Assembly: GCA_002753335.1 (NCBI GenBank)
Contig: PEAD01000020.1
Span: forward strand, 1-57,501
Direction: 5' to 3'
Source of the DNA: Nitrospirae bacterium MYbin3
GTDB lineage: Bacteria; Nitrospirota; Thermodesulfovibrionia; Thermodesulfovibrionales; Dissulfurispiraceae
Length of the DNA stretch: 57,501 bases
Both the position numbers and the translations under genes were made by a program. This document shows, in pieces, positions 22,494 to 39,325 of this stretch. Every line of letters starts with the position of its first letter. Positions within the stretch are counted from its first letter, which is position 1. The notes below the pieces were generated by a model, which ran no database searches, was not told the origin of the DNA, and saw only the letters and a program-made list of their open reading frames with translations.

Positions 22494-22729
22494 CTGTTTT
22501 AGTTGTCTATATTTGTCGGGCATCCAGTAAAAAACACAAAGACTTATAGATTCCCGCTCAACGCACTAAAAAAAGTATGGACTATAGATGCGGGAATGAC
22601 GTAAGTCGTTATTTTGAGACTGTTAATAATTGTACCACAAAAATCACAGGGCCTTCGGCTGCTGATTCCATAACATTAAAATATTTTATTTTTGCCCTTT
22701 CAGAAAAATCTCTATGCTATAATATTTTT

Positions 22730-22945
22730 ATGAATACTGCCGCTGAACTCGACAGCATCACAGAGATACTTGCTAAAATGCCCGAATCGGTGTTGCAGGA
22801 AGTTAGAGACTTCGCCTTTTATCTTGCAGACCGAGAACGCAGAAGAAATGCGCTTATCAAAAGGGTGCAAGAGGCAGAGGCATCAGCTCCAACACGATAC
22901 GATTCTGTTGATGATGCGGTAAATGCAGTATTTGATGAAGTTTAA
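22730..22945 (+). CDS. Putative antitoxin (small acidic protein)
   Basis: MNTAAELDSITEILAKMPESVLQEVRDFAFYL; overlaps the downstream toxin; TGcTATAAT ends 6 nt before the ATG (possibly leaderless). Confidence 0.7.
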   Translation: MNTAAELDSITEILAKMPESVLQEVRDFAFYLADRERRRNALIKRVQEAEASAPTRYDSVDDAVNAVFDEV

Positions 22946-23204
22946 ATTTGACTACGCACCGGCATATCTTAAAAACGCACGCAAGCTCGCTAAAAAATAT
23001 CCTCAACTAAAAAAGACCTACACAGAAGTTCTGTATAAACTTGCAGAAAATCCCTTTAATCCGCAACTGCACACGCATCCGCTTACAGGAGAACTTAAGG
23101 GTAAATATGCCTGCTCTCTGACTTATGAACTTCGCATTGTTTTCAAGCTGAATGAGGATGTTGTCCACTTGCTTGATATAGGCTCACACGACGAGGTTTA
23201 TTGA
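22935..23204 (+). CDS. YafQ/RelE-superfamily mRNA interferase toxin
   Basis: LHTHPLTGELKG...LRIVF...LLDIGSHDEVY. Confidence 0.85.
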   Translation: MKFKFDYAPAYLKNARKLAKKYPQLKKTYTEVLYKLAENPFNPQLHTHPLTGELKGKYACSLTYELRIVFKLNEDVVHLLDIGSHDEVY

Positions 23205-23344: not shown

Positions 23345-23544
23345 TTGCTCTCCTGCTAAACTTTTTTTCCTTTAGGCTCACAGGGCCTTCGGCTGTTGCC
23401 TACCGACCCCGCTTGCCTTTGTGCTTTTTGCCCTATGAAATACCGTTGCTTTTAATTTCACGGGGGCAGGACAGCGGTCTGGACACATCGCGCACTGACC
23501 GTGCATCCTTAAACGCAGCGGTTCGCGCTTGTTAATGATGTGTG

Positions 23545-23670
23545 CTGGCGAGGCGGAAGCCAAGATTGTTGTTCCTGTTGTCCGGATTGTTGTTGTTGCG
23601 ATTGGCTGAGCGAACATTCCTCGCGTTGTTGTTCCAGCTGCCGCCACGATTCACCCGGTTGGAGCCGCTC
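23545..23670 (-). repeat. DGR template repeat (TR)
   Basis: Ungapped 126-bp match to 25950-26075; 15 AAC/AAT codons in the target frame ([41 protein letters not shown]). Confidence 0.95.
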
Positions 23671-24688
23671 TCCGACCGCTGCCCGTATTAGCAAAAAGCC
23701 TTTTCCTTAAATTCAGTGAATCAGCAAACCCCGCAAACCCTATTATGCTCGCAAGGCTCATGCTGTATTTATCTTCGTCAATAAGTCCTCGCCTGAACTC
23801 ATTTTCCCTCTGCCTGATTTTGGCCTTGAGCCGTTTGATGTTCTCACTTTTGATACGAAGTAGCGACGGAAACACCCTGAAACCAAGAAACGGCAATCCG
23901 TTCAGCCTCGAATTTATCATGGTTGCGGAGTCTTTCAGTTTAAGACACAGACGCTGCTCAAGGAAATTCTCAGACAGTTTCAAAAGTTCTTTTAAACGCT
24001 CTTTGTCGTCAGAGAATATAACGCAGTCGTCCATGTAGCGAAGATACGCTTTGCAGCCAAGTTCGTCTTTTATGTAGTGGTCAAAGGCATCGAGATAAAC
24101 ATTCGCAAAAAACTGGCTTGTCAGATTACCGATAGGCAAGCCCTTGCCCGTCTGCTCTCCCCTGCTCGCGTCATTGTTGGCGACTATTATTTTTATCAGA
24201 TCAAGCAACCTTTTGTCCTTTATCTTTCTTTCAATGAGTCCGATCAGAACACTGTGATCCATGCTCTCGAAGTATTTATTGATATCGAATTTCAGATAAT
24301 AGCGGTTCTTGCGCATGAACTCCTGCGCCCTTCTGACGCATTTGTGCGTGCCCTTTTCCTTTCGAGTGGCGTAGGAATCATAGATAAACACCCTTTCAAA
24401 TATCGGCTCAAGAGCAGCAACTACAGAGTGGTGCACTACCCTGTCCCTGAAAGAAGCTACGCTTATCGTCCTTTCCTTAGGCTCATATACCTGAAAATAA
24501 CGGTACTTGTCTGGCCGGTAGATACCGTTTAACAGCTCACGCTGTAATTCAAAAAGTAGGTGTTCAAGCTCAAACTCAAAGGCGCATGCTTCTTCGGTTT
24601 TACCGCTGCCTCTCATCGCCTTTTTGAAAGCTCGATACAAGCTTTCAAATGTGCAGACCTTTTCAAACAGGTTTCCGGTTCTTTTCAT
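23651..24688 (-). CDS. DGR reverse transcriptase
   Basis: [43 protein letters not shown]; 345 aa with no maturase or endonuclease tail. Confidence 0.95.
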
Positions 24689-25019
24689 GCGCCGATTTCC
24701 TCCATCCGCCCACCATAACTCCGGTTTCGTTCAGTTCCCTGCTGATGAACTCGTACTGACTGGATGAGAGGTATTTTCTGTTGAATGATATTCTGAAAAG
24801 AACTCTCAGTTTTTCTATATATAGGTTCAACTTATCCAATATATACGCCCTGTCTTTGCTATATATAGCCTCAATTATGCCTTCGGTTATGTCCAAAGAA
24901 AGGTTTGCTATCCTGTCCGAGAAGCTGAAACGCACACTTTTGGGGAAGCTGTCTGTCCTGTCGAGTATCCAGTCCTGCACCGAAAGCCATTTGTTGAAAA
25001 CAGGGTAGTCCTTGTTCAT
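24663..25019 (-). CDS. avd: DGR accessory variability determinant (four-helix bundle)
   Basis: FPKSVRFSFSDRI, LRVLFRIS, ETGVMVGGW; overlaps the RT start. Confidence 0.9.
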   Translation of the reverse strand: MNKDYPVFNKWLSVQDWILDRTDSFPKSVRFSFSDRIANLSLDITEGIIEAIYSKDRAYILDKLNLYIEKLRVLFRISFNRKYLSSSQYEFISRELNETGVMVGGWRKSAHEKNRKPV

Positions 25020-25029
25020 TTTCCCTTTT

Positions 25030-25053
25030 TGTCACATTGAGCCTGTCGAAGGG
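25030..25053 (+). repeat. REP-like palindromic repeat, copy A
   Basis: TGTCACATTGAGCCTGTCGAAGGG; contains the GIY-YIG stop codon. Confidence 0.75.
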
Positions 25054-25334
25054 CGTTTTTTCGACAACTCTATCAATCTTTCAAAATCCCCATTTATGAG
25101 AGACTCCTTCTTCCGTCTTGACCAGCCTTTAATCTGTTTCTCCCTAGATATTGCTTCAACAACATCTCCAAACTCCTCAATATACATTAGGTTAACAGGT
25201 CGTTTCTCATGGGTATAACATCCTTTAATAATTCCCTCTTGATGCTCATAGAAACGCCTTTCAACATCATTGGTTACACCTGTATAATAGCTTCCGTCCG
25301 AGCATTGCAATATGTAAATGTAGTAGCTCTTCAT
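25032..25334 (-). CDS. Stand-alone GIY-YIG nuclease
   Basis: YYIYILQCSDGSYYTGVTND..RR..EH, AISREKQIKGWSRRKKE. Confidence 0.9.
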   Translation of the reverse strand: MKSYYIYILQCSDGSYYTGVTNDVERRFYEHQEGIIKGCYTHEKRPVNLMYIEEFGDVVEAISREKQIKGWSRRKKESLINGDFERLIELSKKRPSTGSM

Positions 25335-25350
25335 TTTTTATTTTCTATAT

Positions 25351-25423
25351 CGTCATCCTTCGACAAGCTCAGGATGACATTTTCAGCTGGCTCACCACTG
25401 TCACCCTGAGCTTGTCGAAGGGG
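25351..25423. repeat. Inverted pair of REP-like repeats (copies B and C)
   Basis: CGTCATCCTTCGACAAGCTCAGGATGACA, 19 nt, TGTCACCCTGAGCTTGTCGAAGGG. Confidence 0.85.
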
Positions 25424-25850
25424 CGTAAAAAGTCCTGATCATCTCCGTAACAGCGGCGCCGTATTTTTCGATCTTTTTCTTTCCAAAGCCTCTGATGGCC
25501 TTCAATGCCTCAAGGCTGCGGGGCGTGTTCTTGATAATATCCTTAAGTTCCCTGTTGGTTGCCACTATATATGTCGGCACGCCTTCTTTCTCTGCCTGTT
25601 CCCTGCGCCATTGCTTGAGCCGGTCAAACAGCAGCTTTTCGGCTTCATTCATGCCTTCGTGTTCGCCGCCTTCAGCCTTTTCAAGCACAGTATCGTACTC
25701 GAGAAACACCGTCCAGCTTGGGTTTCCTTCGTGGATAAAAAATTCTGTCCTAAAACTTTTCACCTGCTTGTTAAGGCAGAAATCGTTCAGTATTTCCTCG
25801 CTGAACGATTTGGTTGCAGAATCATAGGGTATGGTCAGTATTTTAAACAT
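25401..25850 (-). CDS. HRDC-domain DGR accessory protein
   Basis: LFDRLKQWRREQAEKEGVPTYIVATNRELKDI...IRGFGKKKIEKYG. Confidence 0.88.
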   Translation of the reverse strand: MFKILTIPYDSATKSFSEEILNDFCLNKQVKSFRTEFFIHEGNPSWTVFLEYDTVLEKAEGGEHEGMNEAEKLLFDRLKQWRREQAEKEGVPTYIVATNRELKDIIKNTPRSLEALKAIRGFGKKKIEKYGAAVTEMIRTFYAPSTSSG

Positions 25851-25867
25851 GGCTTAAAGACAAAGAC

Positions 25868-25887
25868 TGCGGGGCTCTGCCCCTGCA
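25868..25887 (-). other. GC-rich hairpin downstream of the VR (candidate DGR cis-acting stem-loop)
   Basis: Minus strand TGC-A-GGGGC-AGA-GCCCC-GCA, about 52 nt after the target stop. Confidence 0.55.
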
Positions 25888-25939
25888 CCCCGAAAGAATA
25901 TAAAAAACAGCAAAAGGTAAAAAGGTAAGAATCCAAAAA

Positions 25940-26968
25940 CTAAGGAGTCCTGGCGAGGCGGATGCCAAGAAAGCCGTACCTGTAGCCCGGATTGTCGAAG
26001 TTGCGAAGGGCTGACCGAACAAACCCCGCGTTGTCGTCCCAGCTGCCGCCACGATACACCCGGTAGGAGCCGCTCGAAGGCCCCGTAGGATTGTTCCTCG
26101 GACTGTTGCTGTAATAATTATCTGCCTTCCAGTCCTGCACCCATTCCCATACATTGCCGCTCATATCATATATACCGAGTCCGTTCGGCGCTTTTGTTCC
26201 AACCTGATGCGTCTTGCTGCCGGAGTTTGAACTATACCACGCTACACTGTCAACATCATTGCCACCGGAATATTTCTCGCTCTTGCCTCCACTCCTTGCA
26301 GCATATTCCCATTCGGCTTCTGTAGGCAATCTGTATTTGCCGCCGCCTGAACGGCTGTTTAGTCTGCTTATAAATTCCTGAACATCATTCCAACTGACAT
26401 TCTCCACAGGGCAGTTATCGCCGCAGTTCTTGAAGTGCGATGGATTATTTCCCATCACCGCCTGCCATTGCCCTTGTGTCACTTCATACTTGCCTATGTA
26501 ATAATCATCTACACAAACCTCATGCACAGGCTTTTCATCATCGTAACATTCACTCGTCCAGCTTCCGCATCCCATCTGATAACAGCCGCCTTTGACAAAC
26601 ACAAGCTCCATGCCGGTCGCAGAGTCTTTGATGAGCTTGCCGCCTGCAACAACCTCAAAATCGGCGCTTCCTGAATAGCCGCGCGAAAAGTCCTGAAGCA
26701 CATTCCAATATATCTTCTTTTTCTTTCCTGTTTTTGTCTTGCCGTAATCTCCTGTAAGATGCAGCTTTTCTGCGGAATAGTCCCTGCCCTTGACGGTTAT
26801 CGTAACGCTCACCTCGGCATCTTCATTGTATTCGCCCTCAAGGTCGTATTCCATAAGCATGCGGTTGCCCTGCTGCCGGACATCGAGGTTCTTGACCTCT
26901 GCGGCAAAGGATAGACCGCACACTAATATGGACATAATTAAAAATGCGAAGAGTTTTACAGATTTCAC
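25940..26968 (-). CDS. DGR target: secreted protein with C-terminal FGE-sulfatase (C-type lectin fold) domain
   Basis: Signal peptide; YEVTQ, RLPTEAEWEYAAR, NGLGIYDMSGNVWEW, RGGSW; VR at the C-terminus. Confidence 0.93.
   Translation of the reverse strand: MKSVKLFAFLIMSILVCGLSFAAEVKNLDVRQQGNRMLMEYDLEGEYNEDAEVSVTITVKGRDYSAEKLHLTGDYGKTKTGKKKKIYWNVLQDFSRGYSGSADFEVVAGGKLIKDSATGMELVFVKGGCYQMGCGSWTSECYDDEKPVHEVCVDDYYIGKYEVTQGQWQAVMGNNPSHFKNCGDNCPVENVSWNDVQEFISRLNSRSGGGKYRLPTEAEWEYAARSGGKSEKYSGGNDVDSVAWYSSNSGSKTHQVGTKAPNGLGIYDMSGNVWEWVQDWKADNYYSNSPRNNPTGPSSGSYRVYRGGSWDDNAGFVRSALRNFDNPGYRYGFLGIRLARTP
25950..26075 (-). repeat. DGR variable repeat (VR)
   Basis: 105/126 identical to the TR; 19 of 21 differences at TR adenines. 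Confidence 0.95.
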
Positions 26969-27243
26969 TTGTATGCCCCTCCACGATGATCTATTTCATA
27001 AACATAAAGCTCACCGGTATTCCTGTCAATTTTAAAAATGATACGAACATTACCGAGCCTCATTCTCATAAAACCCTTCCATTGTCCTTCGAGAGATTTT
27101 ATCTGGAGCTCTCTGAAAGGGACTATTCCCTGTTCGTCCACAGACAATGCAAGCCTTTTGATTTTAGTTCTGATTCGCTCACGAGTTGCATCATCTGAAC
27201 CTATAATGAACTTCTCGGCCTGTCTGCTGAACTTTAATTTCAC
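26965..27243 (-). CDS. RelE/ParE-family toxin
   Basis: IKSLEGQWKGFMRMRLGNVRIIF...EIDHRGGAYK. Confidence 0.85.
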   Translation of the reverse strand: MKLKFSRQAEKFIIGSDDATRERIRTKIKRLALSVDEQGIVPFRELQIKSLEGQWKGFMRMRLGNVRIIFKIDRNTGELYVYEIDHRGGAYK

Positions 27244-27443
27244 TTCATTACCCAGTCTGTCATGTCTTTAAAATCAGATTTTTTGTATTTGGCCGGAGTG
27301 CCGTAATTACCCTCTATCTCTTGCATCTCTTTCTTTGATACCGGCGGAACCAAAACCTCATATAACCCTAACCGCTCTTCGCGTATTGCATCACGAACAC
27401 TCTCCCTGATTATTTTTCTCAATACCTTTTCAGCAACTACCAT
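27240..27443 (-). CDS. Putative antitoxin
   Basis: Small gene overlapping the toxin start; AGAGGAGG RBS before MVVAEK. Confidence 0.65.
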   Translation of the reverse strand: MVVAEKVLRKIIRESVRDAIREERLGLYEVLVPPVSKKEMQEIEGNYGTPAKYKKSDFKDMTDWVMK

Positions 27444-27540
27444 TTGATTGCCTCCTCTGTAAAATATGCCCTGTTCCGCCTTTGAAAAATCATATTCTTT
27501 TTTCATATCAACTCATTCACCCTTCCAAGCTTCTACCCTT

Positions 27541-29436: not shown

Positions 29437-30438
29437 ATGACAGCAAAGCCTAAACTAAGCATGTACTGGGCTGCATCATGCGGAGGGTGTGAGATCGCCC
29501 TTGTAAACATCAACGAAAAGATTCTGGATGTTGATGCGGCGTTTGATTTTATGTTCTGCCCATGTCTGCTCGACACCAAGTACAAGGACATAGAAGCACT
29601 GCCTGATGGAGACATTTTGATTACGCTCTTCAACGGAGCTATCAGGACTACCGAAAACGAGCATATGGCAAAACTGCTGCGCAAAAAATCTAAGCTGCTC
29701 ATCGCATTTGGATCATGCGCATCTGAAGGCTGCATACCGGGACTTGCAAATCTCAGCACAAAGAAAGACGTTTTTAAAACATGCTACCTCGACAACCCAA
29801 GCATAGACAACCCTTCGGGCATAACTCCACAAACGGAAACAAATGTGCCTGAAGGCAAGATAACCATTCCAGCCTTTTACGACTCTGTCAAAACTTTAGC
29901 GCAGACTGTTGATGTGGACTATTTCATACCCGGATGCCCGCCAGAACCTCACCAAATATGGGCAGTTGTAGAGACGGTCTTGAATATTCTTAAATCAGGC
30001 GCTCCACTGCCCCCAAAAGGAACCGTTCTAGGCGGAGGAAAATCCTCGGTTTGCGAAGAGTGTGAGCGCAAAAAAGAGGACAAAAAAATAACAGGCTTCC
30101 GCAGAACCTATGAGTTCATTCCGAACAGAGAGCAATGCCTGCTCGAACAGGGAGTTGTCTGCATGGGCATCGCCACAAGAGACGGATGCGGTGCGCTATG
30201 CCCAAAGGTGAACATGCCCTGCACCGGCTGCTACGGCCCGCCTGAAGGAGTGCTGGATCAGGGCGCAAAAATGGTTGCCGCGCTTGGCTCAATCATTGAT
30301 ATCGGTGACCTGAAAGGCATGAAGGAAGATGATATAGACAAAAAAATCGATGAAATAATAAGCACGATTCCGGATTTCGCAGGCACCTTCTATAAATACA
30401 GCCTGCCGGGATCCATTATGAAAGGGAGGGTTTCATGA
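29437..30438 (+). CDS. mvhG: Group 3 [NiFe]-hydrogenase small subunit (MvhG-like)
   Basis: SCGGC, GSCA, PGCPP, C-terminal Cys cluster CP...PCTGCYGP; no Tat signal. Confidence 0.9.
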   Translation: MTAKPKLSMYWAASCGGCEIALVNINEKILDVDAAFDFMFCPCLLDTKYKDIEALPDGDILITLFNGAIRTTENEHMAKLLRKKSKLLIAFGSCASEGCIPGLANLSTKKDVFKTCYLDNPSIDNPSGITPQTETNVPEGKITIPAFYDSVKTLAQTVDVDYFIPGCPPEPHQIWAVVETVLNILKSGAPLPPKGTVLGGGKSSVCEECERKKEDKKITGFRRTYEFIPNREQCLLEQGVVCMGIATRDGCGALCPKVNMPCTGCYGPPEGVLDQGAKMVAALGSIIDIGDLKGMKEDDIDKKIDEIISTIPDFAGTFYKYSLPGSIMKGRVS

Positions 30439-31931
30439 CCACGCAAGCAAAAAGAATAACCATCGATCCCATCACAAGACTGGAAGGACACGGGAAGATA
30501 GAAATATTCCTGAACGACGAAGGAGACGTTGCCAACACTTATTTTCAGGTTCCAGAACTGCGCGGCTTTGAGCAGTTCTGCGTGGGCAGACAGGCCGAAG
30601 ACCTGCCTGTCATAATGAACCGAATATGCGGTGTCTGACCCGAGGCACACCACATGGCGTCAGTTAAGGCGCTGGACGGAGTCTTCGGAGTAACACCAAC
30701 ATCAGCAGGCTCAAAGGTCAGAGAGCTTGTCTATATGGCCTTCTATGTTACGGACCATGCAACACATTTCTATGCATTGGGAGGCCCTGATTTCATAGTA
30801 GGCCCTGATGCTCCCCCTTCAGAAAGAAATATTCTTGGAGTGGTCAGGAAAGTCGGCCTTGATATAGGCAAGCAGGTTATCGATTGCCGAGCGCGCAACC
30901 ACCATATAATAAAGATGCTTGGCGGCAGAGGCGTTCACCCTGCAGCTGGACAGCCGGGTGGATGGAGCAAGCCGGTATCTGAAGAGGAGCGCAAGGAAAT
31001 AGAAGAGATTGCACGCAAGAACGTTGATTTTGCGCTTTTCTCGCTCAAGGCATTTGACGATATAGTGCTCAAGAACCCGCAGTATCTCGAACTTGTAACA
31101 TCCGACATTTATCTGCACAAAACCTATTACATGGGCACTGTTGATGAAAAAAATAGGCCTAATTTCTTTAACGGCATGATCCGAGTTGTCGATCCTGAAG
31201 GCAAGGAGTTCTTGAAATACCATCCTTCGGAATATACCAAGCATATCGCTGAGCATGTTGAGAGCTGGACATACCTTAAATATCCATATCTCAAAAAAAT
31301 CGGGTGGAAAGGCTTTGTTGACGGAATGGACAGCGGCGTGTATGCGGCAACACCTCTTGCACGCCTGAATGTAGCAGACAGCATGGCCACGCCAAAGGCG
31401 CAGGAGCATTACGAGCGTTTCTTCGAAACCTTCGGCTCTAAAAAAATTAATGGGCGGTATCAGCCGGTGCATCACCGCCTCGCAACACATTGGGCAAGGC
31501 TCATAGAATTATTGTACGCTGCTGAACACATGCTCGAACTGGCAACCGATCCAGAAATAACCTCTCCGGATGTCAGAACGATACCGACTTCCATTAAAGG
31601 CGAAGGCGTCGGCAGTGTTGAAGCTCCGAGAGGCACGCTTACACATCATTACATCACAGACGATAAAGGTGTTATAACAAAAGCAAACCTGATTGTTGCA
31701 ACAACAAACAACTATGCGGTCATGACAATGTCGATCAAGCGGGCGGCTGAAAAGCTCATAACAAAAGGCAAGATAGTTGAAGAGGGAATCCTGAACAGGA
31801 TAGAGATGGCCTTCAGGCTTTACGATCCTTGCCTGTCCTGCGCAACCCATTCACTGCCGGGCAAGATGCCTATGACTGTGAACATTCGTAATAGCAGCGG
31901 CGAAGTGATAAGGTCATTTAAAAGAGGTTGA
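30435..31931 (+). CDS. mvhA: Group 3 hydrogenase large subunit (MvhA-like), 498 aa if TGA 30636-30638 is read through (putative selenocysteine)
   Basis: TRLEGHG, RGFE, RICGV-TGA-PEAHH in frame with the downstream ORF, EAPRG, DPCLSCATH plus C-terminal extension. Confidence 0.9.
30650..30675 (+). promoter_or_regulatory. Candidate bacterial SECIS hairpin
   Basis: Stem GGCGUC/GGCGCU with loop AGUUAA starting 23 nt after the UGA; folded by eye only. Confidence 0.5.
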
Positions 31932-32407
31932 TGAAAACTATCGTAATAGGCCTGGGCAACCCCATACTCACCGACGACAGTGTGGGTATAAAGGTGGCGC
32001 GTGAACTGAAAGCGCGGTTGTCTGACGATTGCGAAGACGCAGAGATTGTTGAAGTTTACGCAGGCGGCATTCGGCTTATAGATGTGCTTAAAGGCTATGA
32101 TAGGGCAATCATCATAGACGCTATGGTTACAGGAGAGCATGAACCCGGAACCATACACCGTTTCTCTTCCTCAAACCTGACCTCTACAAGGAACGCGATG
32201 TCAATGCATGACCTTGATCTTCCGGGCGCACTCGAACTGGGCAGAATGCTCGGAATACCTTTGCCAGAAGATTTCAGGATATGGGGGATAGAAGCCCATG
32301 ATGTAGAGACCTTCAGCGAAGAGCTTACAGAGAGGGTTGCGTGTTCAGTGCATCCTGTTGTTGAAGAAGTTATTGAAGAGTTATCATCGGTCACCCAATA
32401 TATTTAA
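31931..32407 (+). CDS. Hydrogenase maturation protease
   Basis: IGLGNPILTDDSVG, IIIDA, SMHD. Confidence 0.9.
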   Translation: MKTIVIGLGNPILTDDSVGIKVARELKARLSDDCEDAEIVEVYAGGIRLIDVLKGYDRAIIIDAMVTGEHEPGTIHRFSSSNLTSTRNAMSMHDLDLPGALELGRMLGIPLPEDFRIWGIEAHDVETFSEELTERVACSVHPVVEEVIEELSSVTQYI

Positions 32408-32417
32408 GGGGGTTTTT

Positions 32418-34364
32418 ATGAAAATAGGAGTTTATTTTTGCAAATGCGGTACCAATATTTCGGACAAGATAGATTCCGAAAAAGTTAAAGCCGGATTACC
32501 TTCAGGAGACCTTGCTTTTAAGACTATCGATTTCATGTGCTCAGAAGACGGCAAAGAGACTCTCGAAAAGGACATCAAAGAAAACGGCATCGAGAGAGTT
32601 GTTGTTTCTGCCTGCTCGCCGAGAGACCATGAGAACACCTTCATGAGAGTGCTCTCAAAGGCCGGCATCAATCCTTATCTTATGCAGATGGTAAATGTAA
32701 GAGAACAGATTGCATGGGTAACAGAAGACAACGAAAAGGCAACAGAAAAGGCAGGCCGTTATATCAATGCCGCGATATGCCGTGTTGAACTACACGACCC
32801 TCTAGAGAAGAAAGAGATAGACATATGTCCCGATGTTCTGGTAATAGGAGCGGGGCCAGCAGGACTCAAGACCGCATTGAGCATTGCCGAGTCTGGACGG
32901 AAGGTGATAATAGTCGAGAAAACTCCGGTCATGGGCGGCATGCCTGTACGCTATGAAGAACTATTCCCTAACATGGAGTGCGGACCATGCATGCTTGAGC
33001 CTGTGCTAGGCGACATTCTGCATGGTGAGCATGCCGAAAATATCGAACTACTTACAATCGCAGAGGTTGTTGATGTTGTAGGCTCATACGGAAATTTCAC
33101 CGCAACCATAAAACAGAAGCCGCGGTACAGCGACATACACAAATGCATCGGCTGCGGAGAATGCATCGAGCCATGCCCTGTTTCTGCAAAAAACATCTAC
33201 AACTGCAACCTCAGCGAACGCAAAGCAATATCATTCCCCTTTGCGGGCGCATTGCCGAACGCGCCTTTCATAGATGATGCAATCTGCCTGAAAAAGAAGG
33301 GCCAAGATTGCAACCTATGCAAAGATGCCTGTCCGGTTGATGACGCGATTGTTTTTGACGATGCTGAACGCGTCATCGAAAGAAATGTCGGGGCTATTGT
33401 TGTTGCAATAGGTTCGGATACTTATGATTGCACCAGGATTCCAAATCTCGGCTACGGCAAGATTCCTGATGTGCATACAGGCATAGAGTTTGAAAGAATA
33501 TTGGCTTCAAACGGCCCTACCTACGGAGAGATTCAGACATCTCAGGGAACCGCGCCGAAATCGGTAGCCATTATTCATTGCGTTGGGAGTCTGGATAAGA
33601 AACATAAAGAATATTGTTCAGGAATCTGCTGTCAGTATGCCTTCAAGTTTAACCATCTGCTTGAAAGCAAACTGCCGGGAACAAAAATACACCACTTCTA
33701 CAAAGAACTGGTCATCCCCGGCAAAGAGGAGTTCCATCTCTATCAGCATGCAAAAGGAAATCAGAACTCAGCATTTATCCGTTACGAGGATATCGAGTCT
33801 TTGACAATAACAGAAAAAGACGGCAAAAAGATCATCAAAAACTCTGCGGATAAAAAAGAGTTCGAGGCTGATATGGTGATATTATGCCCTGCGGTAGTGC
33901 CAACTTTGGAATCGGGCAAACTCGGCGATATTCTTGAAGCTACGCATGACAAGTTCGGATTCTTCGAGGAACTGCACGGAAGGATGGACTCTGCCCAGAG
34001 CAAAATCAAAGGAGTATATCTCGCAGGAACCTGCCAATCACCGATGGATATACAAAAGACTATGAATCAGGGCATGGCGGTTGCCGGATATATTTTATCA
34101 GGGTTGGTAGCAGGCAGAAAGCTTGAGATAAAACCTATTACAGCGGTAGTAGAAGAAGATCGCTGCTCAGGATGCCGGGTCTGCGTACTGGTATGCCCAT
34201 ACAAGGCTGTTGCCTATGATGCAGAAAAAGGATCATCTGTAGTTAATGAAGTTTTGTGCCAAGGCTGCGGCACATGCGTTTCAGCCTGTCCGGTCGGGGC
34301 GATAAAAGGCAACCACTTTACCAACAATGAAATCTTTGCAGAAATAGAAGGGGTGCTGTCATGA
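32418..34364 (+). CDS. hdrA: Heterodisulfide reductase subunit A-like flavoprotein
   Basis: KIGVYFCKCGTNI, ACSP, GAGPAG, HCVGS...YCSGICC, ferredoxin-like motifs; start at MKIGV. Confidence 0.9.
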   Translation: MKIGVYFCKCGTNISDKIDSEKVKAGLPSGDLAFKTIDFMCSEDGKETLEKDIKENGIERVVVSACSPRDHENTFMRVLSKAGINPYLMQMVNVREQIAWVTEDNEKATEKAGRYINAAICRVELHDPLEKKEIDICPDVLVIGAGPAGLKTALSIAESGRKVIIVEKTPVMGGMPVRYEELFPNMECGPCMLEPVLGDILHGEHAENIELLTIAEVVDVVGSYGNFTATIKQKPRYSDIHKCIGCGECIEPCPVSAKNIYNCNLSERKAISFPFAGALPNAPFIDDAICLKKKGQDCNLCKDACPVDDAIVFDDAERVIERNVGAIVVAIGSDTYDCTRIPNLGYGKIPDVHTGIEFERILASNGPTYGEIQTSQGTAPKSVAIIHCVGSLDKKHKEYCSGICCQYAFKFNHLLESKLPGTKIHHFYKELVIPGKEEFHLYQHAKGNQNSAFIRYEDIESLTITEKDGKKIIKNSADKKEFEADMVILCPAVVPTLESGKLGDILEATHDKFGFFEELHGRMDSAQSKIKGVYLAGTCQSPMDIQKTMNQGMAVAGYILSGLVAGRKLEIKPITAVVEEDRCSGCRVCVLVCPYKAVAYDAEKGSSVVNEVLCQGCGTCVSACPVGAIKGNHFTNNEIFAEIEGVLS

Positions 34365-34801
34365 ACACAGAAAACAAAACATTCGAACCTAAAATAGTCG
34401 GATTCCTCTGCAACTGGTGCTCTTATGCGGGTGCAGACAAGGCAGGAACCGCACAATCCCCCTATCCGCCTAATGTGGATGTAGTCAAGGTAATGTGCAG
34501 CGGAAGGGTTGATCCCCAGTTTGTTATGAAAGCCTTTGAGAAAGGCGCTGATGGTGTTATAATACTCGCGTGCCATCCGGGAGACTGCCACTACAAAGAG
34601 GGTAACTACCGCGCAGCACAGAGGTTCAGAATGCTGTCACGCCTGCTGAAGCAGTTCGGCATAGAAGAGGGTCGCTGCCGCTTTGACTATGTTTCTGCAG
34701 GAGAAGGCGAGAAGTTCGTTACGGTAATTACCGAGATGGTCGAATCAGTAAGGGCGATGGGGCCGCTGCATAAGACAAAGCAAGCTGCGAAGACAGCATA
34801 A
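34361..34801 (+). CDS. mvhD: Hydrogenase iron-sulfur subunit MvhD
   Basis: CNWCSYAGAD, MCSGRVD, CHPGDCHY. Confidence 0.93.
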   Translation: MNTENKTFEPKIVGFLCNWCSYAGADKAGTAQSPYPPNVDVVKVMCSGRVDPQFVMKAFEKGADGVIILACHPGDCHYKEGNYRAAQRFRMLSRLLKQFGIEEGRCRFDYVSAGEGEKFVTVITEMVESVRAMGPLHKTKQAAKTA

Positions 34802-35260: not shown

Positions 35261-35719
35261 TTATTCCTCCTTCTCAGCAAATATACGATTATCAAAAACT
35301 ATGTTTCTATCGTCTTTTAATACCTGAAGCTGAATATCCCAATACCCATAAAGAGGAAAGCTTATTTCGGACTTGTATCTGCCTGAATAAGAATCAACCG
35401 CTTTTGCAGAATATGTTTTATCGAATGCGTTGGTTGCAGGCCTGCTGATTTTAAGGGATATTGAAGCTCCGTTAATCGGTTTTCCTGCAGCATCAAATAC
35501 CGAAATCAAAATCGACTTGTCCGAGACTTTAAATTTATTGTTTTTAAATTCTACGCTCCAACCGCTCGCCAATTTATCTTTCTGCAGCTTATCCCAATCA
35601 AGACCCTTTTCGTAATACTTATCCGTCACCACGCCATCAAAGCTCGCACTGCCGATTATGATCGGCACAACCGCCGCCGCCACAGCAACCACACAAACAA
35701 TAATCATAAATACCTTCAT
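35261..35719 (-). CDS. FixH/YtkA-like protein
   Basis: N-terminal TM, DKYYEKGLDWD, C-terminal Ig-like G.WDI; cco context. Confidence 0.75.
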   Translation of the reverse strand: MKVFMIIVCVVAVAAAVVPIIIGSASFDGVVTDKYYEKGLDWDKLQKDKLASGWSVEFKNNKFKVSDKSILISVFDAAGKPINGASISLKISRPATNAFDKTYSAKAVDSYSGRYKSEISFPLYGYWDIQLQVLKDDRNIVFDNRIFAEKEE

Positions 35720-36921
35720 AATTTATCAGGCCTTCGGATATAAGCGCTCTTTTCTATAGTCCTGCCAGATTTCTTAGACACAACCGCAATCCTGAGCTGC
35801 ATTTGTTCCTTAATAATCATATCCGGCTTAATGATAACAAAAACCTGAACCTTCCGGTGCTCACCCGATGCAAGCTCAATATGGTCCGGTTTTATTTCAA
35901 CATCTATGCCTGATATAGCCGCCTTTAAAGTAAACTCAACCGGAGCCCTTTCCCTATTCTCGACCGCGATCAAGTATGAATTCATTAAATCGCCCTTTCT
36001 AGCAATACGTGGTTTGAAGTCATTGTTCGGCATTACCACCAAATCGAACGGCATTCTGAATAGCAGCAGATAAGCGGCAAAAATAAAAAAACAAAAAGTA
36101 AACACGCCAAGCAGAACAACTTTAGTCCTTAGGATTCCAACATTATAGTTTTCTTGGCCGAATGAATACCTGACAAGTCCTGTCCTATTTTTTTTCTTAA
36201 GCATCTCTGCGCATTTATCAACACATTCGGCGCAAGCTATGCATGCCTGATTCAGGCCTTTTTTAATGTCTATATTCACAGGACAAACCCTGACGCAGGC
36301 ATCACAATGCATGCATTCCTCGCTCCTGTTCTCATCAAAAGCTATGACCAAAGTTTTATCATCGAACAACACACCTTGCAGCTTTGAGTACGGGCATACG
36401 GTGGCGCAAAATTTATGTCTGAGAAAAACGAAGTTTAAAAAGAGAATCAATGACAGGACTATCCAGAAACCCCATATCGTCTCACCAAGTCGATTGCTAA
36501 ATAAAAGTTCGAAAAAATCGTAGGGAGACACAAAATACCAGATTAAATTTGCCCCCATAATTACACTCACAATGAAGACAGCAGTAAAAGCCCCTGCTTT
36601 ATACAAATAACTTTTTTTGAATGCAGCTTCTATAAAATAGGTAAAATCAACGATGACCGTTTGTGGACAAAGCCAGCCGCACCAGACACGACCAAATAAA
36701 ACGGTCATAAATATTATCAGGAACGAAAAAAATATCAGGCAGATGAGAACAATAAAGAATTCATCCATCCATAGGCTTATGCCGAAAAAATGGAGTCGGA
36801 GAGTTGGGATATCGAATCGTAGCGCACTCTCGCCTTTAATGACGAGAAAGGGCAGACCGATTATGATAATGGCCTGAATAGTCTCTGCAAGCCTTCTCCA
36901 AGGCCGGATTGATAAGGACAA
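35716..36921 (-). CDS. ccoG: CcoG/FixG polyferredoxin membrane protein
   Basis: GRVWCGWLCPQT, FCATVCPY, CMHCDACVRVCP, CIACAECVDKC. Confidence 0.9.
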   Translation of the reverse strand: MSLSIRPWRRLAETIQAIIIIGLPFLVIKGESALRFDIPTLRLHFFGISLWMDEFFIVLICLIFFSFLIIFMTVLFGRVWCGWLCPQTVIVDFTYFIEAAFKKSYLYKAGAFTAVFIVSVIMGANLIWYFVSPYDFFELLFSNRLGETIWGFWIVLSLILFLNFVFLRHKFCATVCPYSKLQGVLFDDKTLVIAFDENRSEECMHCDACVRVCPVNIDIKKGLNQACIACAECVDKCAEMLKKKNRTGLVRYSFGQENYNVGILRTKVVLLGVFTFCFFIFAAYLLLFRMPFDLVVMPNNDFKPRIARKGDLMNSYLIAVENRERAPVEFTLKAAISGIDVEIKPDHIELASGEHRKVQVFVIIKPDMIIKEQMQLRIAVVSKKSGRTIEKSAYIRRPDKL

Positions 36922-36930
36922 GATGTTCTT

Positions 36931-37029
36931 CTACTTTTTGCTTTTGTTTCCGGTTACAAATACCAAAACAAATATGCCGGCAACCGCTATTGCAGTGAAC
37001 CCTATTGTAGCCACGATTGATGCATCCAT
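36931..37029 (-). CDS. 32-aa single-TM small protein (possible CcoQ/CcoS-like accessory)
   Basis: MDASIVATIGFTAIAVAGIFVLVFVTGNKSKK with AAGGAGG RBS; below the ORF-track length cutoff. Confidence 0.65.
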   Translation of the reverse strand: MDASIVATIGFTAIAVAGIFVLVFVTGNKSKK

Positions 37030-37071
37030 CAGATTCCTCCTTGCCTTATATCTTTTAAAAATAAAGGGGGT

Positions 37072-37108
37072 GTGGGTGGAGAAAGGGGAGAGAAGATTCT
37101 CCACCCAC
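37072..37108. other. Intra-operon stem-loop
   Basis: GTGGGTGGAGAA...TTCTCCACCCAC, 12-bp perfect arms. Confidence 0.6.
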
Positions 37109-37122
37109 GGGGAGAGACGCCT

Positions 37123-37308
37123 TTATTTCTTTATAGACTCCTGATATTGACCTTCCTGACTCCATCCACCGAGAGACGGGGTGTAGGTGTAAAGATAATA
37201 TGCACCCCAAATAATCAAGCCCCAAAAAAGCATAAGCCAGCCAACGGGCAGTTTATGTGCGGTCTCTTTGGATTCAAACTCTTCTATCTTATCTATATCT
37301 TCGGCCAT
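37123..37308 (-). CDS. Small protein resembling the CcoP N-terminal membrane segment, no heme
   Basis: KLPVGWLMLFWGLIIWGAYYLY; no CxxCH. Confidence 0.65.
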   Translation of the reverse strand: MAEDIDKIEEFESKETAHKLPVGWLMLFWGLIIWGAYYLYTYTPSLGGWSQEGQYQESIKK

Positions 37309-37317
37309 ATATTCCTC

Positions 37318-37917
37318 CTATTCAGTTTGCGCAGCCGGTTTTTTTACGGCTGTGCCTATGACCTGCATGTAAGCGACCAGCGCATCAAGCTCACTCTTGC
37401 CGTTAAGCGCGGTTATCTCATCAGGCTTGTAAGGGAAACCTAAAGCCTTCATATGCGCCTCAACATCAGACGGATTCAGTTTGTTATTTTTTAGCCAGCC
37501 ATATTTAGGCATATTTGATTCGGCAAAAAATGACTGGGGATCTTCAAAATGCATTTGGTGCCACGCATCAGGATATTTGCCCCCGATTCTAGCAAGGTCT
37601 GGGCCGGTTCTCTTAGAACCCCACAAAAACGGCTGGTCGTAAGCAAACTCTCCCGCCTTGGAATACTCGCCATAACGCAAGACTTCTGCCTTCAAGGGCC
37701 TTACAGTCTGCGTATGGCATCCTATACATCCTTCCTGCTGATAAACATCCTTGCCCGCAAGCTCCAGCGGCGTATATGGCTTAAGGCCTTCAAGTTTAGG
37801 GTGCATCTCTGCGGTCATCATTGGATAAAAAAGAGTGACCACAGTGCCTATAAGCACAACAACTGTGACAACAACCGCAAAGAGTATTGGATTTTTATAT
37901 AGCACTGAATTTGCCAT
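37318..37917 (-). CDS. ccoO: cbb3-type cytochrome c oxidase subunit II
   Basis: YTPLELAGKDVY, CIGCHTQ, WGSKRTGPDLAR. Confidence 0.93.
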   Translation of the reverse strand: MANSVLYKNPILFAVVVTVVVLIGTVVTLFYPMMTAEMHPKLEGLKPYTPLELAGKDVYQQEGCIGCHTQTVRPLKAEVLRYGEYSKAGEFAYDQPFLWGSKRTGPDLARIGGKYPDAWHQMHFEDPQSFFAESNMPKYGWLKNNKLNPSDVEAHMKALGFPYKPDEITALNGKSELDALVAYMQVIGTAVKKPAAQTE

Positions 37918-37927
37918 GTCCGCCCCC

Positions 37928-39325
37928 CTATGCCTTTGCCGCCACAAGGGCCTTGCCCTTGCGGATCGTCATATGAATGTTATAAATAAAGAAAAGCATT
38001 CCGACAGTAAATATTAAACCTGCCACAGTACGCAGTTGCCAGTACGGATAGTTCTTGGACAAAACTTCCATAAAGGTATATTTGAGTGTGCCGTCAGGAT
38101 TTACAGCCTTCCACATAGCGCCCTGCTGTATTCCTGTAATCCACATGGTGATAGAAAACATAAGCTGTCCGATTAGCACAAGCCAAAAATGTATGTTTGC
38201 AACTTTTTCGCTGTATATCTCTGTGTTGTAGATTTTAGGGATTATGTAGTAAATGCAGGCAGCAACCGTCATGGTAACCCATCCCATTGTTCCCATATGC
38301 ACATGGCCCGGCACCCAGTCTGTGTAGTGAATCAGTTGGCTCACCACCCTGAGAGCCTGCGTTGGCCCCTGTACTGTCTGAAGCCCATAGAAAGCTATGC
38401 CCCAGATAAAAAACTTTGTAAGATAATTGGTCCGCATCTTAGACCAATCCGCACCTACCGTATAAAAGCCGTTCACTACAGATCCCCATGACGGGGCTAT
38501 CAAGAAGATTGTGAAAACTATTGCAAGGGTCTGGATCCAGTCGGGCAGAGGCGTATAAACCAAGTGATGAGCGCCTGTCCAGAGGTAGCCAAAAGTCAGA
38601 GACCAAAAAGCGATTATAGAAAGCCTGTGGCTGTAAATCGGCATGCCGGTTGATTTGGGCAGAAAGTAATAAAACATCGCAAGGATAGGCGTCGTAAAGA
38701 TAAAGCCCACCGCATTATGGCCATACCACCACTCGACATTTGCGCTGTTGACACCTGCAAAAAGATGGTATGACTTGAAAAGTCCGGCAGGTATTGAAAG
38801 GTTGTTCACGATATAAAGCACAGCAACCGCAACAACAGTCGCAATTATATACCATAAAGAAATATACATCTGCTCCTCTTTTCTCTTTATGATAGTGCCA
38901 AACACATTCACCGCAAATATTACCCACAAGATAACGACGCCGATATCAAGAGGCCACTCAAGCTCGGCATATTCAAGCGACTGGTTCATCCCTGCAAAAA
39001 GACTGACAGCAGCAAGGGCGATAGCCACATTGAAAAGATGAAGATGAAACCTAGCCAGTTTGGGAAAAAGTAGAGGTCTCTTTGTTAACCTCATCAAAAT
39101 ATAATAGGAGATGCCAAAAATAGCACCAATACCCAACCCAAACGCAAGCCCGTTGGTGTGAACTACTCTCAATCTTCCAAAGGTGAAAAATGGCGGGAAG
39201 TTATGCGACGGACTCCACATCTGAATCGACAGCAAAAGTCCGACCACAATTCCCACGACACCCCAGAAAATAGAGGAGAGTATAAATCCCTTGACCGTTT
39301 GATTATCATACTGATAATCGCTCAT
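37928..39325 (-). CDS. ccoN: cbb3-type cytochrome c oxidase subunit I
   Basis: FGRLRVVHTN, WWYGHNAVGF, GAHHL, GHVHMG. Confidence 0.95.
   Translation of the reverse strand: MSDYQYDNQTVKGFILSSIFWGVVGIVVGLLLSIQMWSPSHNFPPFFTFGRLRVVHTNGLAFGLGIGAIFGISYYILMRLTKRPLLFPKLARFHLHLFNVAIALAAVSLFAGMNQSLEYAELEWPLDIGVVILWVIFAVNVFGTIIKRKEEQMYISLWYIIATVVAVAVLYIVNNLSIPAGLFKSYHLFAGVNSANVEWWYGHNAVGFIFTTPILAMFYYFLPKSTGMPIYSHRLSIIAFWSLTFGYLWTGAHHLVYTPLPDWIQTLAIVFTIFLIAPSWGSVVNGFYTVGADWSKMRTNYLTKFFIWGIAFYGLQTVQGPTQALRVVSQLIHYTDWVPGHVHMGTMGWVTMTVAACIYYIIPKIYNTEIYSEKVANIHFWLVLIGQLMFSITMWITGIQQGAMWKAVNPDGTLKYTFMEVLSKNYPYWQLRTVAGLIFTVGMLFFIYNIHMTIRKGKALVAAKA

Follow-up and report, generated by a model that had tools for sequence, protein, structure and literature searches.

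In the window, by which we mean the whole 57,501-nucleotide stretch of Nitrospirae bacterium MYbin3 DNA analysed here, an mvhA-type [NiFe]-hydrogenase large subunit gene (30435..31931, + strand; 498 aa with the TGA read through) has a TGA at the codon for the second cysteine of its N-terminal metal-binding motif. We conclude that this TGA is very probably read as selenocysteine (Sec68), with selenium predicted to bridge Ni and Fe in an intact MvhA-type subunit. The first-pass annotation had left the choice between a bridging Sec and a UGA read as Cys; the former is now the best-supported reading, given the presence of selABCD, the sharing of the TGA by orthologs, purifying selection downstream of it and the failure to find the tRNA on which the latter depends, either in the genome of the window (G000) or in that of its congener (G001).

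The large subunit gene and its operon

The TGA at 30636..30638 (+) is the only internal stop in the frame 30435-31931, and translation of 30435-31928 with TGA as U gives a single frame of 498 residues with one U, at residue 68, just as expected from the earlier description of one large-subunit frame broken by a TGA at this very cysteine. Under standard table 11 only the downstream 425-aa ORF (30654-31931) appears for mvhA. The N-terminal motif for binding Ni, R-I-C-G-V-U-P (C65 and U68; CGA ATA TGC GGT GTC TGA CCC), occupies 30621..30641 (+); the motif itself had been correctly recognized, with a start placed at 30622, one base too late. The C-terminal Ni-binding motif had also been read correctly as DPCLSC, and lies at residues 464-469 (31824..31841, +), followed by a histidine and a cleavable extension. 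Its cysteines are all encoded by TGC, and the canonical C-terminal UxxC of [NiFeSe] hydrogenases is absent. The protein thus has RLEGH at 15, RICGVUP at 63, EAPRG at 396 and DPCLSCATH at 464, which we take to represent the two Ni motifs, the proton-relay Glu, the canopy Arg and the approach to a cleaved C-terminal tail. A Shine-Dalgarno-like GGGAGG lies just 5' of mvhA, whose start overlaps the mvhG stop. Since residues 5-126 align with 16-137 of E. coli Hyd-1 (3UQY_L), U68 is the equivalent of Hyd-1 C79, and structures of [NiFe] hydrogenases have established that the residue at this position bridges Ni and Fe.

Sequence, fold and gene cluster all identify the window protein as the large subunit of an MvhA-type (Hdr-linked, group 3) [NiFe]-hydrogenase. 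The nearest solved chains by sequence, 7T2R_D (380.3 bits) and 5ODC_F (378.8), are tied, and the best NCBIfam model is VhuA, at 399 bits and under its cut-off of 800. An AlphaFold model made with 30 homologs has a pLDDT of 86 and a pTM of 0.89, with lower values near both metal motifs, and its best fold match is the MvhA chain 5ODC_F (TM 0.85/0.94, 41% identity). A search of plasmids returned distant HoxH-type relatives only.

The gene is preceded by an mvhG-type small subunit gene (29437..30438, +; 333 aa; VhuG model 215.7 bits, under the cut-off of 450) and followed by genes for a hydrogenase maturation protease (31928..32407, +; TIGR00072 above cut-off), an hdrA-like flavoprotein of about 648 aa (32418..34364, +; HdrA models 456-585 bits, under cut-offs) and an mvhD-like [2Fe-2S] subunit (34361..34801, +; 146 aa; VhuD model 118.6 bits, under the cut-off of 215). 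All four neighbors are open frames, in agreement with the first-pass annotation's view that the rest of the operon is intact, and the order mvhG-mvhA-protease-hdrA-mvhD is identical in G001. In the 28 metagenome loci of at least 4.5 kb with the TGA, MvhG is found in 28, HdrA in 25, MvhD in 24 and the protease in 19. We did not find hdrB or hdrC in the window operon or in that of G001; at G000:C44:73735-76549 there are hdrC-like, hdrB-like and, at the contig end, truncated hdrA-like genes, a possible partner of the window's Mvh-HdrA module. The G000 assembly has hypD; a search of it for an MvhA paralog of the Cys type found none. Promoter and terminator scans gave no excess over shuffled sequence.

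Other elements of the window may be noted here. Genes of a cbb3-type oxidase (ccoN, ccoO and FixG-/FixH-like genes, 35261-39325, -) adjoin the hydrogenase operon on the opposite strand, and a FixH/FixG-like pair adjoins it in G001 as well, hinting at a micro-oxic lifestyle. A diversity-generating retroelement (23542-26968, -) has a reverse transcriptase (23651-24688), a bAvd (24663-25019) and a target gene with an FGE-sulfatase-like domain (25940-26968), with GIY-YIG and HRDC genes in between; when its template (23542-23670) is compared with the variable repeat (25947-26075), 22 of the 129 bases are mismatched, and 19 of these mismatches fall at template adenines. Two small toxin-antitoxin-like pairs of the YafQ/ParE type (22577-23204, +, and 26965-27506, -) flank the retroelement.

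Decoding of the TGA

A predicted bacterial SECIS element extends from 30638 to 30691 (+), and consists of a lower stem, internal loops, a 7-bp upper stem (30655-61/30668-74) and the loop AGUUAA (30662-30667), which begins 23 nt past the UGA. The hairpin with a G-U in its loop at this distance, pointed out previously, is therefore present, with G as the second loop base and U after it. Its folding z-scores against 200 shuffles are -2.6 (30636-30700), -3.1 (30640-30690) and -1.0 for the 38-nt core alone; no Rfam match was found in the window. A comparable hairpin rule, which missed selD's own SECIS and is no substitute for bSECISearch, is passed by 3,847 of the 103,625 TGA triplets genome-wide (3.7%), so the hairpin by itself is modest evidence, and it is the comparison of homologs that makes the recoding signal strong. 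When the stem and loop were held at fixed positions (at least six stem pairs, G at loop position 2), 93 of 100 distinct TGA stretches passed and 4 of 90 Cys stretches did, a difference whose significance is overstated, since the genes share descent, the Cys set leans toward relatives of the window gene, and both registers used were picked after inspection of the TGA genes. Free minimum-energy folding separates the two kinds less cleanly, with a loop G in 96 of 111 TGA genes and 33 of 90 Cys genes.

The predicted SECIS overlaps a conserved coding helix, and the codon choice of the TGA genes is constrained there: the Lys codon is AAG in 100 of 100 (background 0.69) and the Ser codon TCG in 90 of 96 (background 0.23). 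One register, GCC-TCG-x-AAG-GCC, is used by 89 TGA genes. The window gene, G001, L160 and L259 have a register shifted by one base, GCG-TCN-GTN-AAG-GCG, and so does G190. The Cys genes that pass the hairpin test (L009, L012, L043 and L100) all do so in the window register, and three of them are close relatives; from these sequences, it appears that the hairpin either preceded Sec or persisted after reversion to Cys. Between the window gene and G001 a single base differs in the 17 codons past the TGA (pS 0.08 there vs 0.52 gene-wide).

If the TGA were instead a real stop, the subunit would be made in two pieces, of 67 aa and of 425 aa from ATG 30654, in the manner of the methanococcal VhuA/VhuU split. 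There is indeed an in-frame ATG 16 nt past the TGA, and split large subunits exist (VhuU model), but the division would remove a metal ligand and residues 68-73. Moreover, the five codons that separate the TGA from the ATG still encode the conserved P-E-A-H-H, the ATG borders the hairpin and is not preceded by any Shine-Dalgarno-like run, and in many TGA homologs that Met is replaced by Leu, Val or Phe. We regard this arrangement as very improbable.

A nonsense mutation or an assembly error, which would make the gene a pseudogene, is equally hard to credit. Close relatives do have TGC or TGT at this codon; however, four orthologs whose sequences were assembled separately share the TGA at 77-96% identity, dN/dS is 0.019 past the TGA (window vs G001, 430 codons, dS 0.96), synonymous sites past it are conserved, and not one of 116 metagenome MvhA genes with the TGA is interrupted by a second stop ahead of the C-terminal motif or the end of its locus. 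The first-pass annotation would have accepted a simple nonsense mutation had no homolog shared the TGA; since orthologs and metagenome genes alike share it, the pseudogene reading is already largely refuted.

The machinery for reading the TGA as Sec is present, for selA, selB, selC and selD, which the first-pass annotation proposed to look for, are all found in G000: selA, selB and selD score above cut-off, there is one tRNA-Sec (selC) with a G discriminator, and selD itself has a TGA. As selA occurs in 272 of the 301 genomes of the order, its co-occurrence with the gene does not discriminate. Other probable selenoprotein genes of G000 are those for FdhA (RIUH; C8:40991, -), a DsbA-like protein (QUPHC; C8:36843, -), a rhodanese-like protein (CRGYGU; C57:53063, +) and SelD (CAGU; C46:39188, +). 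The UGAs of the FdhA, DsbA-like, rhodanese-like and group 1 hydrogenase (below) genes of G000 have G-loop hairpins 19-23 nt downstream. A genome-wide reassignment of UGA was also considered and is rejected, as TGA ends ordinary genes, mvhA among them.

The same SECIS-controlled readthrough could insert Cys, always or when selenium is short, by way of tRNA-ReC (SelC*) or of misacylation, and the site would then be bridged by sulfur. Takano et al. point out the limit of Sec calls made from sequence only (available text of PMC13582414), and SelC* has been reported in Nitrospirae (available text of PMC5389517). In the order of the window organism, a long tRNA-Cys(GCA) with a U discriminator has matches in 76 of 301 genomes, the anticodon is GCA in 30 of the 30 best tRNA-ReC-like loci, and a covariance model built from 29 loci matches 37 of 68 genomes of the family at E<=1e-12, the weakest seven (62-64 bits) of which may be selC. 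Against insertion of Cys, the best match of that model in G000 and in G001 is selC itself (of about 600 candidates in each genome, 150 were scored), searches of G000 with BLAST, with nhmmer and with a motif across the whole genome return only selC and ordinary tRNA-Cys, and G000 has only one SelB above cut-off. A selC* with a long variable arm, GCA or UCA anticodon and U73 was found neither in draft G000 (93.7% complete) nor in draft G001 (99%), and the draft state of both means that this explanation is lowered in standing rather than removed; we consider it improbable, and less so than either of the two preceding ones.

On the preferred reading, that of Sec at residue 68, SelB would bind the hairpin 23 nt downstream and deliver Sec-tRNA-Sec, as in the established bacterial Sec pathway, and in the absence of selenium the product would end at 67 residues. 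By analogy with established [NiFe] structures, the protease encoded next to mvhA would remove the C-terminal tail once the cofactor had been loaded in a Hyp-dependent manner, Ni would be held by C65, U68, C466 and C469, and U68 and C469 would bridge to Fe(CO)(CN)2. Electrons would pass from H2 through MvhA, MvhG and MvhD to the HdrA flavin, if the module works like MvhAGD-HdrABC, and the hdrC/hdrB genes on contig C44 are candidate partners only. The likeliest effect of selenium on catalysis would be a fine-tuned H2 affinity or redox behavior.

Distribution and history of N-terminal selenocysteine codons

Homologs with TGA at this codon, which the first-pass annotation had hoped to see, are found both in genomes and in metagenomes. 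They include G001 (same genus, 96% amino acid identity), L160 (a metagenome contig, 87%) and G190 (L412, 77%). Among the close orthologs, of which the named ones are Nitrospirota / Thermodesulfovibrionales records at 80-83% identity, Cys is the usual residue: TGC or TGT is present in 8 of the 10 genome matches of at least 78% identity, and Cys in all 78 motif-covering loci of a set of 80 from relatives. Since most close orthologs have Cys, Sec is, by this comparison, dispensable for the MvhA-type enzyme. A pattern scan of metagenomes (31 of 64 parts of the collection) gave 119 loci, three of them chance matches and the other 116 MvhA genes with the TGA, of which 58 are intact to DPCxxC and a stop and 58 are open to the end of the locus. 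Clustering at 90% identity divides the 60 distinct full-length CxxU proteins into 42 groups, with identities ranging down to 48%. The pattern of MvhA CxxU was seen in 2 of 141 genomes of the class to which a Dehalococcoidia record belongs and in none of 216 from the phylum of a Geobacter record; one contig of the former class (G436:C27; L418 and L419) has two MvhA CxxU genes 5 kb apart. One looser sequence pattern, which matched 299 of 301 genomes, was set aside as too loose.

On a tree of 34 rows the four TGA genes (window, G001, L160 and G190) form one clade (100/96) within Cys genes, with one change of state, and the other MvhA CxxU genes, about 50-64% identical, branch elsewhere. A single origin of all MvhA CxxU genes was rejected by an AU test (p 7e-6, or 8e-61 with Cys row L020) that used 49 selected rows, a quick tree and groups named after the first tree had been viewed. 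Because the clade sits within Cys genes and has the shifted hairpin register, its Sec was probably gained separately from that of the other MvhA CxxU lineages, a direction of change that depends on how the tree is rooted and on a sampling that is biased. Some Cys relatives already have the hairpin, and it was probably on such a hairpin that the Sec lineage of the window arose; for the deeper MvhA CxxU groups, an ancient gain followed by losses could be the explanation.

N-terminal Sec seems to be common in the order Thermodesulfovibrionales, since a group 1 UxxU pattern is found in 103 of its 301 genomes (control, 1; inspection of 30 loci showed 28 to be genes of this kind) and a CxxU pattern in 83 of 301 (25 of 30 loci examined are hydrogenases). 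G000 itself has a group 1 hydrogenase large-subunit gene at C62:54666-56216 (-; loci L037/L123) with TGA at both N-terminal Cys codons (R-I-U-G-V-U), of the Tat-exported, cytochrome-b-linked uptake type, and with one hairpin past the second TGA. On a tree of 48 rows, the CxxU and CxxC forms of group 1 are intermingled.

Several further observations were made in these genomes. The group 1 small subunit at L123:10345-11415 (-) has C-A-G-D-S-E-S, with Asp in place of the usual second proximal-cluster Cys. L021, L022 and L377 (in G033, G023 and G286) are a divergent paralog that resembles MvhA at 49% identity and has the motifs T-I-C-G-V-U-R and D-L-C-F-A-C; it has a Cys sister in G013, and its pattern is seen in about 10 genomes of family f10. 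A large-subunit type about 25% identical to MvhA (L413, L414 and L415, in G293, G199 and G090) has R-I-C-G-V-U-P-T, and CxxU is therefore found in the order in no fewer than one additional subgroup of hydrogenases. Long selC*/tRNA-ReC-like tRNA-Cys genes (GCA, U73) are common in the order (L325, G033:C1:139337-139429; L331, G009:C1:1469859-1469987; L343-L372), and in several of them the variable arm is greatly extended, for a total of about 125-135 nt, the G009 copy being missed by ARAGORN.

Relation to known hydrogenases and implications

Hydrogenases of the N-terminal CxxU kind are already known in silico. Takano et al. (2026) described 47 sequences of group 4 in which Sec is N-terminal, 27 of the CXXU type, 4 of the UXXC type and 16 of the UXXU type, and give the second position of CXXU as the Ni-Fe bridging ligand; their survey excluded groups 1-3, and the available text does not mention Nitrospir* (PMC13582414). 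The same available text cites Baltazar et al. (2011) for CXXU in two group 1 sequences and one group 3 sequence, whose review is also the source given in PMC8020662 for a substitution of a bridging 'C579'; the two citations thus disagree on the position. Like the members of this in-silico class, the window gene has UGA at the second N-terminal Cys with Sec predicted to bridge Ni and Fe, a SECIS-like hairpin with a loop G at 1 or 2, selABCD in the genome, Cys-type sisters with SECIS-like folds, and a gene context that is unchanged. Unlike Takano's group 4 enzymes, it is an MvhA, of a type far more numerous than the one cited group 3 sequence and with origins in more than one lineage.

In the MvhAGD-HdrABC complex of Methanothermococcus thermolithotrophicus (PDB 5ODC) are homologs of MvhG, MvhA, MvhD and HdrA, which the window has in one operon; that complex has an all-Cys active site, and the window operon differs from it also in being without hdrB and hdrC. 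The characterised [NiFeSe] hydrogenases (Desulfovibrio/Desulfomicrobium HysL and the methanococcal Vhu/VhuU and Fru, of which Vhu belongs with the window MvhA to one enzyme type of group 3) resemble the window protein in having one Sec among four active-site ligands. Their Sec, however, is first in the C-terminal motif and is a terminal Ni ligand beside the proton-relay Glu, whereas that of the window is N-terminal and predicted to bridge. In the literature surveyed, as far as its available text goes, the Sec of natural characterised [NiFeSe] hydrogenases is always a terminal Ni ligand.

An artificial counterpart does exist. The engineered E. coli Hyd-1 variant C79U of Evans et al. (2021), with Sec at the position equivalent to U68, is active; according to the available text it had 13% of native activity, the highest of four Sec variants, with a lower apparent KM for H2 and O2 tolerance no better than native (PMC8020662). 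Unlike the window enzyme it was built on an O2-tolerant group 1d scaffold that is not adapted to selenium. A 2026 review of selenoproteomes gives MvhA/VhuA only with UxxC in its available text (PMC13188914), and the available texts of PMC11291895 and PMC11212049 have nothing that bears on an N-terminal bridging Sec site. Within the text that it covered, our literature search turned up neither a natural bridging-Sec enzyme that has been characterised nor any mention of this lineage; the 2011 review of Baltazar et al. and the supplements to PMC13582414 and to PMC8020662 could include such sequences. What is new here is the breadth of MvhA CxxU, its probable independent gain in the window's lineage under a SECIS register that is shifted, and a genus that has such genes and no detected tRNA-ReC.

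Many MvhA genes are split at the TGA codon by gene callers, and surveys will therefore miscount or miss them. L007 and L009, Sec and Cys orthologs that are 86% identical and have the same operon type, provide a clean test pair, in a genus for which searches turned up no rival tRNA of the Cys-recoding kind. Taking the comparisons together, we put forward tentatively, at somewhat less than an even chance, the idea that selenium-bridged Ni-Fe sites are recurrent rather than rare. MvhA-type enzymes would have gained a bridging Sec several times, the codons of the same helix (A-S-x-K-A) being turned into a SECIS each time, in two registers, and a genus with no detected Cys-recoding tRNA would make both one-selenium MvhA sites and two-selenium group 1 N-terminal sites, which may be catalytically distinct from those of the known [NiFe] and [NiFeSe] hydrogenases.
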